From Aulosira sp. ZfuVER01 (GTDB lineage Bacteria; Cyanobacteriota; Cyanobacteriia; Cyanobacteriales; Nostocaceae): a DNA stretch of 64,000 nt. How positions within the stretch are numbered: the first letter of the stretch is position 1; every line of letters starts with the position of its first letter. The translations under genes were made by a program, and so were the position numbers. The DNA lies in the NCBI GenBank assembly GCA_034530615.2, contig JAVRCV020000052.1, positions 96,001 through 160,000 of the forward strand, in the 5' to 3' direction. This document shows positions 32,400-36,492 of the stretch, in pieces. The notes below the pieces were generated by a model. That model had not been told where the DNA came from and did not search any database. It was given only the letters and a program-made list of their open reading frames with translations.

Positions 32400-32732
32400 T
32401 CAATCCAACCTACTCATCTGCTCATTAATGGAGTTCAAAGGCTCATTAACGGAGTAAAAAGCCTCATTAACGGAGCAAAAAGCCTCGTTCACGGAGCTAA
32501 AAGCCTCATTAACGGAGCTAAAAGCCTCATTCACGGAGTAAAAAGCCTCGTTCACGGAGTAAAAAGCCTCATTAATGGAGCTAAAAGCTTCATTAACGGA
32601 GTAAAAAGCCTCATTAACGGAGCTAAAAGCCTCGTTCACGGAGTAAAAAGCCTCATTAATGGAGCTAAAAGCCTCGTTCACGGAGTAAAAAGCCTCATTA
32701 ATGGAGCTAAAAGCCTCATTAACGAATATCAA
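32400..32732 (-). CDS. Putative heptad-repeat (F-x-S-V/I-N-E-A)n protein
   Basis: Frame open through the repeat; several repeat variants are synonymous in this frame; weak TTG start. Confidence 0.4.
   Translation of the reverse strand: MIFVNEAFSSINEAFYSVNEAFSSINEAFYSVNEAFSSVNEAFYSVNEAFSSINEAFYSVNEAFYSVNEAFSSVNEAFSSVNEAFCSVNEAFYSVNEPLNSINEQMSRLD
32421..32724. repeat. 21-bp tandem repeat, 14 full units plus a partial unit
   Basis: Consensus CTCATTAACGGAGTAAAAAGC with variant units. Confidence 0.95.
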
Positions 32733-32911: not shown

Positions 32912-33367
32912 ATGGAACCAATAACCATCGGTGCGATCGCTCTTTTAACTTTAATCGGCAATAAGGTCATCGATTGGTCAACAGAAAAGGCTTTGGATGC
33001 TGGTTTAGACAAAGCCAAGCAAGTTCTTAAAGCTAAATCACCTGAAACAGCCGCCGCTTTAGAAACCGCAGCCGCACAAGCAGCCTTACCACCAGGAGAA
33101 CGAGAATATATTGGTGAAGCTGTGTTGGTAGAAGAGGTAAAAAAAGCAGCAGAAGCAGACTCGGAAATTAAGGAAGCTGTCGAAGCATTAGGAAATCAAG
33201 CCAGTACTGCTGCACAAGCTAACCCAGAACTGGCAAAGGCTATTGCAGAGTTAACCGCTGCTATTAAAGCGCAAAGTCCGACAACGGTAGAAAACTGGCA
33301 AGGTATAAATATCAAAGGTGGCGAGAATAGTATCAGTAATCCCACATTCAACTTTGGCAGCAAATGA
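32912..33367 (+). CDS. Bell-like helical effector with C-terminal putative amyloid signalling motif
   Basis: Hydrophobic N-terminal helix MEPITIGAIALLTL, Ala/Glu-rich helical body, C-terminal 24-aa motif shared with the next gene. Confidence 0.8.
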   Translation: MEPITIGAIALLTLIGNKVIDWSTEKALDAGLDKAKQVLKAKSPETAAALETAAAQAALPPGEREYIGEAVLVEEVKKAAEADSEIKEAVEALGNQASTAAQANPELAKAIAELTAAIKAQSPTTVENWQGINIKGGENSISNPTFNFGSK

Positions 33368-36300
33368 CCAACGAGAATTGGCAAGGGATAAACATTAAGG
33401 GTGGCGAGACTAACATCAACAACCCAATCATCAATTTTGGGTCATCACAACAGACTTCTCCACCAAATATCCCCAACAATTTAATTTACAAAGGCGCGGT
33501 CGAGTTTGTTGGGCGAGAAAATGAACTTACCGATATCCATCAGAAATTGCAGCAGTCGGCTAACGTAGCAATTTCGGCGGTAGCTGGGATGGGTGGTATC
33601 GGCAAAACAGAACTAGCAACCCAGTACGCATTAAGACATGAAGCTGATTATCCTGGCGGTATCTGCTGGCTAAATGCAAGAGAATCAGAATTAGCAGCTA
33701 GCATTGTGCAATTTTATCTGTTGTACATTGGTCAAGAAATCCCAAAAGAATTGGGGGGAAAACTGCTGAACCTCCAAGAACAAGTACGGTGGTGTTGGCA
33801 GCATTGGCAACCATCTGAGGGTTTGGTGTTGGTAGTATTAGATGATGTCACTAATTTAGAGAATCTGCGAGAATTACAACCAACAACCAACCGCTTCCGG
33901 GTACTCATCACCACCCGCTTACGCAATCTCAACCGCAATTTTGTCAAGGAAATTTCCTTAGATGTACTCCCGGAAATCAAAGCTTTAGAACTGCTAACAG
34001 CTTTTGTAGGTGAAAAGCGAATACAACGGGAAGAAACAACAGCTAAACAATTGTGTCAATGGCTGGGATATTTACCCTTGGGGTTGGAATTAGTCGGACA
34101 GTATTTAGCTGAAGATCCAGATTTATCCTTAGCAGAAATGTTGGAACGGCTGAAAGTGCAACGCATAGAGGATGAAGCACTAGAACGGAGACAGCCAACC
34201 CTGAGTGCAGCACAGCTGGGAGTGAAAGCCGCCTTTGAATTAAGCTGGCGAGAACTGGATGAAAAAACTCAGCTTGTAGGTGCGTTGTTGAGTTTATTTG
34301 CTCCTGATGTTATACCTTGGCAATTGGCAGAGGCTACCAGTGAGTTGCTGAATTGGGCAAAGGCAGATGTAACGGAAGCGAGAAAGCAACTCTACAAACG
34401 CCATCTCATTCAAAGATTAGAAGATACAAACGCTTGTTATCAAATTCATCCATTAATTCGACAATTTCTCCAAGGAAAATTTGGACAAATTCCTCTCATT
34501 ACTGGCAAGGAAGAGTTAGGAATGGAATTCAAACAAGCTTTTGCAACTGCGATGGTAGCAAAGGCAAAAGAAATTCCTAAAACTCCCACCCGTGAATTTA
34601 TTGAGTCAATACAAGGTACTATTCCCCATGTCCAAGAAGTTGCCCAGAACTTAATTCATGCCGTCAAGGATGAAGATTTAACTTGGGTATTTGTTGGCTT
34701 GGGTAATTTTTATGAAGGACAGGGTTTGTATGCGTTAGCAGAACCTTGGCGTATACAATGTTTATCAACAGTCAAAACTCGTTTGGGAGAAGAACATCCC
34801 GAAGTTGCTACCAGCCTCAACAACTTGGCTAATCTCTACGAATCCCAAGGAAATTACACCGCAGCCGAACCCTTGTTTCAGCAAGCTTTGGCAATGAGAA
34901 AACGCCTGCTGGGAGAAGAACATCCCAACATTGCCCAAAGCCTCAACAACTTGGCTAATGTCTACGAATCCCAAGGAAATTACACTGTAGCTAAACCCTT
35001 GTATCAGCAAGCTTTGGCAATGTATAAACGCCTGCTGGGAGATGAACATCCCCACGTCGCCACCAGCCTCAGCAACTTGGCTAATGTCTACTATTTCCAA
35101 GGAAATTATACTGTAGCTAAACCCTTGTATCAGCAAGCTTTGGCAATGAGAAAACGCCTGCTGGGAGATCAACATCCCGACATCGCCACCAGCCTCAGCA
35201 ACTTGGCTAATCTCTACTATTCCCAAGGAAGGTACTCCGAAGCCGAACCTTTGCATCAGCAAGCTTTGGCAATGAGAAAACGCCTGCTGGGAGATCAACA
35301 TCCCGACACCGCTACAAGCCTTATCGACTTGGCTGATCTCTACTCTTCCCAAGGAAATTACACCGCAGCCGAACCCTTGTATCAGCAAGCTTTGGCAATG
35401 CATAAACATCTGCTGGGAGATGAACATCCCCACGTCGCCATTAGCCTCAACAGCTTGGCTAATCTCTACTCTTCCCAAGGAAATTACACCGCAGCCGAAC
35501 CCTTGTATCAGCAAGCTTTGGCAATGCATAAACATCTGCTGGGAGATGAACATCCCCGAGTCGCCACCAGCCTCAACAACTTGGCTAATCTCTACTATTC
35601 CCAAGGAAGGTATGCCGATGCCGAACCCTTATATCAGCAAGCTTTGGCAATGAGAAAACGGCTGCTGGGAAATGAACATCCCCGAGTCGCCACCAGCCTC
35701 AACAACTTGGCTAATCTCTACAAATCCCAAGGAAATTACACCGCAGCTGAACCTTTGTATCTGCAAGCTTTGGCAATGAGTAAACGCCTGCTGGGAGATG
35801 AACATCCCGATGTTGCCGCCAGCCTCAACAACTTGGCTTTACTCTACTCTTCCCAAGGAAATTACACCGCAGCCGAACCCTTGTATCAGCAAGCTTTGGC
35901 AATGCATAAACATCTGCTGGGAGATGAACATCCCCACGTCGCCATCAGCCTTAATAACTTGGCTTTACTCTACTCTTCCCAAGGAAATTACACCGCAGCT
36001 GAACCTTTGTATCTGCAAGCTTTGGCAATGAGTAAACGCCTGCTGGGAGATGAACATCCCGACATCGCCACCAGCCTTAACAACTTGGCTTATCTCTACT
36101 CTTCCCAAGGAAATTACACCGCAGCTGAACCTTTGTATCTGCAAGCTTTGGCAATGAGTAAACGCCTGCTGGGAGATGAACATCCCGATGTTGCCGCCAG
36201 CCTCAACAACTTGGCTTTACTCTACTCTTCCCAAGGAAATTACACCGCAGCCGAACCCTTGTATCAGCAAGCTTTGGCAATGCATAAACATCTGCTGGGA

Positions 36301-36492
36301 GATGAACATCCCCACGTCGCCATCAGCCTCAACGACTTGGCTTTACTCTACTATTCCCAAGGAAATTACGCCGCCGCCGCACCCTTGTATCTGCAAGCTT
36401 TGGCAATTTTTGAGCAAAAATTAGGTGTCGATCATCCTCGTACAGTTAAGTGTCGTCAAAATCTTGAACTTCTTCATGCTGCTAACTCTTAA
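33364..36492 (+). CDS. NLR-like STAND ATPase: N-terminal motif + NB-ARC + 13 x 42-aa TPR
   Basis: FVGRE, Walker A GMGGIGKT, Walker B LVVLDDV, LITTR, GYLPLGL, IHPLIRQF; TPR array 34789-36426. Confidence 0.93.
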   Translation: MTNENWQGINIKGGETNINNPIINFGSSQQTSPPNIPNNLIYKGAVEFVGRENELTDIHQKLQQSANVAISAVAGMGGIGKTELATQYALRHEADYPGGICWLNARESELAASIVQFYLLYIGQEIPKELGGKLLNLQEQVRWCWQHWQPSEGLVLVVLDDVTNLENLRELQPTTNRFRVLITTRLRNLNRNFVKEISLDVLPEIKALELLTAFVGEKRIQREETTAKQLCQWLGYLPLGLELVGQYLAEDPDLSLAEMLERLKVQRIEDEALERRQPTLSAAQLGVKAAFELSWRELDEKTQLVGALLSLFAPDVIPWQLAEATSELLNWAKADVTEARKQLYKRHLIQRLEDTNACYQIHPLIRQFLQGKFGQIPLITGKEELGMEFKQAFATAMVAKAKEIPKTPTREFIESIQGTIPHVQEVAQNLIHAVKDEDLTWVFVGLGNFYEGQGLYALAEPWRIQCLSTVKTRLGEEHPEVATSLNNLANLYESQGNYTAAEPLFQQALAMRKRLLGEEHPNIAQSLNNLANVYESQGNYTVAKPLYQQALAMYKRLLGDEHPHVATSLSNLANVYYFQGNYTVAKPLYQQALAMRKRLLGDQHPDIATSLSNLANLYYSQGRYSEAEPLHQQALAMRKRLLGDQHPDTATSLIDLADLYSSQGNYTAAEPLYQQALAMHKHLLGDEHPHVAISLNSLANLYSSQGNYTAAEPLYQQALAMHKHLLGDEHPRVATSLNNLANLYYSQGRYADAEPLYQQALAMRKRLLGNEHPRVATSLNNLANLYKSQGNYTAAEPLYLQALAMSKRLLGDEHPDVAASLNNLALLYSSQGNYTAAEPLYQQALAMHKHLLGDEHPHVAISLNNLALLYSSQGNYTAAEPLYLQALAMSKRLLGDEHPDIATSLNNLAYLYSSQGNYTAAEPLYLQALAMSKRLLGDEHPDVAASLNNLALLYSSQGNYTAAEPLYQQALAMHKHLLGDEHPHVAISLNDLALLYYSQGNYAAAAPLYLQALAIFEQKLGVDHPRTVKCRQNLELLHAANS
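34789..36426 (+). repeat. 13 tandem 126-bp TPR-coding repeats
   Basis: Units start every 126 nt from 34789; units 9 (35797) and 12 (36175) read identical. Confidence 0.95.

Follow-up and report, generated by a model that had tools for sequence, protein, structure and literature searches.

We analyzed a stretch of 64,000 nucleotides (nt) from the cyanobacterium Aulosira sp. ZfuVER01 (Nostocaceae; GenBank assembly GCA_034530615.2, contig JAVRCV020000052.1, positions 96,001 to 160,000 of the forward strand). This whole stretch is referred to as the window, and positions are counted from its first letter. The subject is a pair of overlapping plus-strand genes in which one short peptide motif appears twice, at the C-terminus of a small protein, which we call the effector, and at the N-terminus of a large one, the receptor. 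The effector gene, known from the list of open reading frames (ORFs) and from its homologs, occupies positions 32912..33367 and codes for 151 amino acids (aa), a Bell-like helical domain followed by the motif, with the stop codon TGA at 33365-33367. The receptor gene (33364..36492; ORF list and Pfam) codes for 1042 aa that comprise the motif, a linker, an NB-ARC domain and an array of TPR repeats. The motif, identified by translation and by its presence in a published set of BASS7 sequences, takes up 24 aa at effector residues 127-150 (33290..33361) and receptor residues 4-27 (33373..33444), with a spacing of 11 nt between the two copies. The receptor start ATG lies over the effector stop TGA in the tetranucleotide ATGA (33364..33367), and the two overlapping genes are probably co-translated.

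Translation reproduced the likeness from which the initial annotation of this DNA had started, with 19 of 24 residues identical between the effector copy and the receptor copy; at the DNA level the number of identical bases was 51 of 72. We also recounted the codon differences and arrived at the same values over the first 12 codons, 6 synonymous and 0 non-synonymous, while over all 24 codons there were 11 synonymous and 5 non-synonymous differences. Therefore, the motif is conserved as a peptide and not as DNA, with selection acting on the peptide. Chance is ruled out as the source of the likeness: when receptor residues 1-46 were shuffled 20,000 times, the best gapless match to the effector motif never had more than 11/24 identities (mean 5.8), compared to the observed 19.

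The NB-ARC NTPase domain of the receptor spans residues 52-269 (33517..34170; Pfam PF00931, E 2.1e-15), and 14 TPR_12 stretches (E 1.3e-247) come after it. The TPR sensor array is visible in the DNA as a 126-nt unit repeated in 12.9 copies with 88% matches between copies (34784..36407; Tandem Repeats Finder). By Pfam, this is the architecture of a NOD-like receptor (NLR), i.e. an NB-ARC or NACHT domain combined with TPR or WD repeats. The Pfam scan placed nothing ahead of the NB-ARC domain apart from the motif and a short linker, in agreement with the earlier remark that an N-terminal effector domain is missing from the receptor. A high internal likeness of TPR repeats has been tied to rapid diversification of NLR recognition (Dyrka et al., bioRxiv 10.1101/2020.01.06.895854), and the 126-nt units, being 88% alike, match the repeat type noted for such receptors by these authors.

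A sequence search for the effector yielded 36 homologs with lengths of 108-158 aa. The named ones all came from genera of Nostocaceae, including Aulosira, Nostoc, Rhizonema, Gloeotrichia, Cylindrospermum and Calothrix, and the nearest relatives were found in filamentous members of this family. None of the 36 had a precomputed Pfam domain. In an alignment of the effector with 31 relatives (alignment A1), the N-terminus was conserved as a methionine, an acidic residue, a proline and a hydrophobic stretch (the effector itself begins with Met-Glu-Pro and then the hydrophobic stretch), followed by a conserved helical body. The C-terminal tail, on the other hand, was modular. Most members ended in the motif of the window, and others carried quite different tails, rich in N, Q, G and I, on the same body. 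Such alternative C-terminal motifs on one helical body fit the idea of exchangeable signaling modules.

The initial annotation had supposed a Bell- or HeLo-like body. The structure predicted by AlphaFold2 from alignment A1 had a mean predicted local distance difference test (pLDDT) score of 66.2. Effector residues 1-121 (32912..33274), with glutamate at position 2 and a hydrophobic first helix, were modeled as a domain of six helices (residues 6-16, 26-42, 44-57, 69-82, 84-103 and 105-121), while residues 123-151, which include the motif, were predicted to be disordered in the monomer (pLDDT below 50). Judged by sequence and predicted helices, the effector has the features listed for Bell proteins, namely a hydrophobic N-terminal helix within a helical domain some 100-120 aa long, and an acidic residue at position 2 or 3, here at 2; an acidic residue near the N-terminus and a hydrophobic first helix are given for the Bell domain by Dyrka et al. 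(bioRxiv 10.1101/2020.01.06.895854). The assignment to Bell is made because orthologs of the effector belong to the set that its authors derived from Bell proteins. The predicted fold adds nothing to this beyond a helical bundle. A Foldseek search of the PDB with the model gave 0 matches at E<=0.001, a wide structure search with VIA-align gave a best Z of 4.3, which is not convincing, and a profile search of PDB sequences with the effector gave a best E of 0.23.

Two proteins, P0039 and P0040, carry other domains ahead of a Bell-like body with a BASS7 tail. According to precomputed Pfam data, these are a CHAT-type region in P0039 and a PGAP1-like hydrolase (PF07819) in P0040.

The motif, considered possibly new in the initial annotation, turned out to be a published one. 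Dyrka et al. described ten BASS families, of which BASS7-10 are specific to cyanobacteria (bioRxiv 10.1101/2020.01.06.895854). A search of the motif against BASS families, made with two fragments from the window, found 78 and 85 occurrences in the training data in supplement 1 of the follow-up paper PMC8086366, every passage listed standing under a C12_ header, and the README of the data archive of the same paper states "C12 == BASS7". For example, the effector tail of locus L014 is identical letter for letter to entry C12_s015 of this supplement, and the receptor N-terminus of locus L009 to entry C12_s011; the effectors of these two loci are 58% and 87% identical to that of the window, respectively. 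The motif of the locus is thus that of family BASS7 (cluster C12), an assignment made by motif fragments and identical ortholog tails in the published data set, not by a profile score. A full-text literature search with the motif fragments returned nothing relevant, and the motif was met only in the supplement of PMC8086366. The window locus is accordingly an ordinary further member of a described class; it needs no new explanation and serves as a clean example of BASS7.

Among species-representative genomes we collected 28 related loci. Eighteen of them (19 with the window) have the two-gene layout with two motif copies, which we call type A; eight have a layout with a single motif copy, called type B; two were left unclassified, L020, where the small ORF runs to 191 aa, and L025, where the contig ends. 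Both copies of the motif were kept in all 19 type A loci, with effectors down to about 54% identical. The receptor motif began 5 nt past the effector stop in 16 of the 19, the window included. The genes of L013, L015 and L019 are 127-245 nt apart, with TAA as the effector stop, and still have both copies. Within this set, motif copies in adjacent genes co-vary: the identity between partners was on average 16.05/23 compared to 13.4/23 between non-partners, and 0 of 10,000 label permutations reached the observed sum. Variant motifs shift on both sides together, as seen in L023 and, most clearly, in L009 and L011, whose two copies diverge in the same way in the middle and at the end.

In three of the 19 type A loci (L021, L022 and L027) the effector is paired not with an NLR but with an ORF of about 260 aa that has an N-terminal motif copy and belongs to no Pfam family. 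This BASS7 partner is located at L021:4462-5241 (plus strand) and correspondingly in L022 and L027, loci of the Brasilonema/Scytonema type.

We conclude, with a probability of about 0.85, that the window locus is a two-gene amyloid-signaling module of the published BASS7 class. The layout of published Bell/NLR pairs, to which the locus had been likened at the outset, was recovered in full: a helical effector with a C-terminal motif and an NB-ARC/TPR receptor with an N-terminal motif, collinear and with a 4-bp overlap. The shared motif of such pairs measures about 20-25 aa, and here it has 24. In the pairs surveyed by Dyrka et al. (bioRxiv 10.1101/2020.01.06.895854) the genes were collinear in 91.3% and overlapping in 42%, and the window genes, with their ATGA, are both collinear and overlapping. 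The cyanobacterial BASS7 Bell/NLR pairs of that study share with the window pair the motif family, the Bell-type effector, the NB-ARC/TPR receptor, the collinear 4-bp overlap and the Nostocaceae hosts; we saw no difference of substance between those pairs (Dyrka et al.; supplement 1 of PMC8086366) and the one described here.

The fungal pair NWD2/HET-S is similar to the window pair in that an NLR with an N-terminal motif stands next to an effector gene with a C-terminal motif. It has the HRAM motif (two pseudo-repeats in HET-S), the HeLo effector fold and a NACHT/WD receptor, and so differs from the window pair in motif family, effector fold and receptor type, in a comparison made by description and not by sequence. 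In Podospora anserina, the N-terminal amyloid motif of the NLR and the C-terminal motif of the adjoining pore-forming helical effector are related by templating, as described in 10.1101/2020.01.06.895854. The Bab/Agp system of E. coli (BASS11), which was tested for phage defense, has a small Bell-type effector that kills the cell after phage infection, i.e. by abortive infection (bioRxiv 10.1101/2024.11.07.622273). Adjacent genes, a common amyloid motif and the small Bell-type effector are shared with the window pair; the motif family and the host phylum are different, and Agp is not described as an NB-ARC/TPR receptor in the available text of that preprint.

Family membership, as judged from sequence, supports the amyloid-signaling reading. 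For BASS7 itself we infer amyloid formation, seeding and cell death by analogy with other BASS families and with fungal systems, namely from NWD2/HET-S, from the experiments on BASS1 and BASS3 and from E. coli Bab/Agp. In the mechanism that we propose, binding of a ligand by the TPR array would cause the NB-ARC domains to oligomerize, and the receptor N-terminal motifs clustered in this way would adopt a cross-beta fold and form a nucleus. By templating, the effector's C-terminal motif would then take on this fold as well. The freed helical domain would kill the cell by inserting its first, hydrophobic helix into the membrane, with abortive infection or another regulated death as the outcome.

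Several observations weigh against this reading. The model of the effector fold is of middling confidence (pLDDT 66) and has no convincing match to a solved pore-forming domain. No family was over the cut-off for the effector in Pfam, NCBIfam or PADLOC, where no Bell model matched, and Pfam scans of all 32 members of alignment A1, i.e. the effector and its 31 relatives, found no family either. A lead from the ESM Atlas to PF20701 (20% of one cluster) was unsupported by the Pfam scans and was rejected; otherwise, the ESM Atlas search with the effector returned only unnamed cyanobacterial clusters. With respect to co-variation, an effector's own partner was among the best-scoring receptor motifs for just 10 of the 19 effectors, and the permutation test overstates independence because the type A loci are kin. 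Finally, the genes near the pair, coding for a PaO/Rieske oxygenase, ThiS, a photolyase-like fragment and TldD/PmbA, are of housekeeping type; they make no defense island, and the context lends no independent support for a role in defense.

Two other explanations of the shared motif were considered. The motif could be a tag for hetero-oligomerization or docking, for example by beta-strand pairing in a fixed complex, with no prion-like templating. The conservation of the two copies, observed at the level of sequence, would be expected of such a tag as well, and the prion and fibril assays given in the available text of Dyrka et al. (bioRxiv 10.1101/2020.01.06.895854) cover BASS1 and BASS3 only, BASS7 not being among them, a point that also counts against amyloid signaling at the window locus. 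We nevertheless hold a docking tag to be unlikely, given that the length of the motif, its N/G/Q/I-rich composition and its placement at the effector C-terminus and the receptor N-terminus are those of the families shown to form prions and fibrils, and that AlphaFold2 predicted the motif to be disordered in the effector monomer. The other explanation, a recent and functionless local duplication of DNA at the gene boundary, could appeal to the distance of just 11 nt between the copies. It is already contradicted by the pattern of conservation and is hardly credible: the copies differ in 21 of 72 bases, with an excess of synonymous over non-synonymous codon changes (11 vs 5), both copies persist in 19/19 loci across effectors that have diverged as far as noted above, and the three loci with 127-245 nt between the genes keep both of them.

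The type B relatives matter more than the window locus. One of them, met in a search of the Aulosira genome with the window's effector, is a paralog on contig C37 (24397-24879, minus strand; locus L004:1303-1785, minus strand). Here a 124-aa effector ends in a BASS7 motif, and immediately past its TGA stop the frame continues into a linker and an NB-ARC/TPR protein that has no motif copy of its own. This layout was present in 8 of the 28 related loci, with several differing motif types upstream. Pfam scans of six type B effectors found no family. The type B loci in our collection are L004, L024, L026, L028-L033, L035-L048, L050-L064, L065-L080, L083-L085, L088-L091 and L094, and the format was found in at least 8 families of the order.

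The spread of the format was followed in two ways. A DNA pattern of the junction had 31 matches in 24 of 401 genomes of the order, compared to 1 match for the reversed control pattern. Of 30 loci found by the pattern, 29 had a helical effector, the motif, TGA and an in-frame NTPase, while L049 was a chance match; the downstream frame ran without a stop through all of the fetched DNA (506 codons) in 24 of the 30 and ended after 97-436 codons in five. A protein search was made in 151 genomes of the family with the effector of the C37 paralog plus the 36 residues that follow, the TGA being read as W for the test. Among the matches listed, all 32 that ran past residue 140 held one TGA (two of these also a TAG), and among the same listed matches (57 more were unlisted) none passed residue 129 without a stop. 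Of 30 loci found by protein similarity, 24 had TGA followed by at least 99 open in-frame codons, with a P-loop in 22 of the 24; in L093 a second stop follows two codons after TGA. Five of the 30 ended in TAA or TAG. Four of these had no continuation, and the fifth, L082, is a two-motif pair whose receptor has its own ATG and shares the frame by chance. Throughout, the frame was the same and the distance 0, both in the 8/8 type B loci of the 28-locus set and in the 24 protein-found loci, and the stop was always TGA. A search of cluster representatives matched 244 proteins at E<=0.001, with no junction-spanning protein among the best 150. A true fusion is P0037 (1108 aa), a protein from an assembly collection that has W in place of the TGA; the W may come from a gene call made with table 4.

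Loci L030 and L031 have near-identical effector and motif modules and near-identical junctions joined to different NTPases, one of the NB-ARC type and one of another P-loop type. To judge from the sequences, this suggests module exchange at a conserved junction.

TGA was present in 37 of 37 junctions, the next base was C in 36 of 37, and the codon after TGA was CTA, two mismatches away from ATG, in 29 of 37. In the Aulosira genome, TGA ends 680 of 3349 long ORFs, and among these 680 the next base is C in 64 and the next codon CTA or CTG in 11; the type B stop context is therefore one that this genome avoids. Considering ATG, GTG and TTG as start codons downstream of TGA, we found that the first in-frame candidate in L042, L043, L045 and L061 is the methionine inside the P-loop, and that it lies 18-56 codons past TGA in most other type B loci. 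Codon variation after TGA was studied in those 14 of the 24 loci whose alignment is free of gaps. Over codons 15-26, located in several loci upstream of any start, the numbers of variable sites at codon positions 1, 2 and 3 were 4, 6 and 8, with 221 synonymous compared to 194 non-synonymous pairwise differences, a pattern pointing to a translated peptide under selection at the protein level. The first ten codons after TGA did not look like a constrained peptide (5, 5 and 4 variable sites; 76 synonymous vs 287 non-synonymous differences).

In an alignment of 32 junctions found by protein similarity (alignment A2, positions counted from the U of UGA) we observed a 5-bp stem, 8 nt after the stop, formed by nt +11..+15 with +24..+28 and paired in 95% of cells. 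Both sides had changed in four of the five pairs; for example, one pair was CG in 22 sequences and UA in 7, and another was CG in 17, UA in 6, UG in 4 and GC in 3. None of 500 shuffles reached the observed values, and controls with the stem slid along the alignment paired in 21-55%. A second stem that would make a pseudoknot (GGG with a downstream CCC) is possible; it has few compensatory changes, and its fourth pair fails in 19 of the 32 sequences. Rfam had no match for the type B junction.

These features recall programmed readthrough signals such as MuLV (murine leukemia virus) gag-pol, with a stop, a spacer of about 8 nt and a pseudoknot, the leaky UGA of phage Qbeta A1, and the bacterial SECIS hairpins. 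What the type B relatives, though not the window, have in common with them is an in-frame UGA, a weak context with C at +4, an 8-nt spacer and a stem-loop that is conserved and covarying in type B. Unlike these cases, the type B relatives are cellular cyanobacterial genes, in a genome where SelA and SelB were not found, with no Rfam match for the junction and with weak support for the pseudoknot stem.

The balance of these sequence comparisons tips slightly toward a reading in which the type B UGA is a site of programmed readthrough that gives effector and receptor from one ORF, in a format not reported before. The single frame would then consist of the helical effector, the BASS motif, the UGA, the linker and the NTPase receptor, and the weak UGA-C stop together with the covarying hairpin 8 nt further on would allow a minor fraction of the ribosomes to continue past the stop. 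The effector would be made in abundance as the short protein and the receptor rarely as the long one, both with one and the same copy of the motif, so that readthrough would set the ratio of sensor to executioner in an immune or death module. The two-gene format of the window would be the counterpart with a duplicated motif. As to novelty, the available text of the two preprints (10.1101/2020.01.06.895854 and 10.1101/2024.11.07.622273) mentions neither the format nor readthrough, the word readthrough does not occur in the BASS papers listed, and further literature searches returned nothing relevant, though supplementary tables S1-S2 of Dyrka et al. may list single-copy loci.

For type B, the competing account is that the NTPase is made by re-initiation at a non-canonical codon after TGA, or that the loci are decaying fusions, and we regard it as rather improbable. 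Decay would agree with the downstream frames of just 97-436 codons in 5 of 29 pattern-found loci and of 99-104 codons in 3 of 24 protein-found ones, and some copies are indeed broken. It is harder to reconcile, as is re-initiation, with a frame that is always the same, a distance that is always 0 and a stop that is always TGA, with a hairpin maintained by compensatory changes 8 nt downstream, and with the protein-level selection on codons 15-26. Also against it stand the prevailing CTA after TGA, two mismatches from ATG, and, in four loci, a first conventional start that is the P-loop methionine. If it is readthrough that takes place at the UGA, amyloid signaling modules could be encoded with one copy of the motif, which would account for many effector-motif proteins without a matching receptor motif, and the type B loci would be a rare cellular bacterial case of structured programmed stop-codon readthrough.

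Selenocysteine at the type B UGA was considered and rejected as unlikely. SelB was not over the cut-off, SelA was not found, and no tRNA with a UCA anticodon was among the 74 tRNAs found in the genome; SelD is present. The SelD homolog, over the cut-off, lies within a 761-aa frame on contig C51 (127422-128360, plus strand). We also noted an array of 28 tRNAs on contig C32 (178953-181564, minus strand) that contains a second, divergent tRNA-Trp(CCA), and a tRNA-like gene with an irregular anticodon loop on contig C46 (55056-55127). A stress-induced tRNA operon has been described in Anabaena (PMC10272220); a link to UGA decoding would be speculation.

A scan for promoters and terminators gave fewer sites than in shuffled sequences. 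In the interval between the effector gene and the gene upstream of it, a 21-nt tandem unit is repeated in 14.5 copies with 83% matches (or a 42-nt unit in 7.2 copies) at positions 32421-32724. A minus-strand ORF of 110 aa (32400..32732) is composed of these 21-nt repeats.

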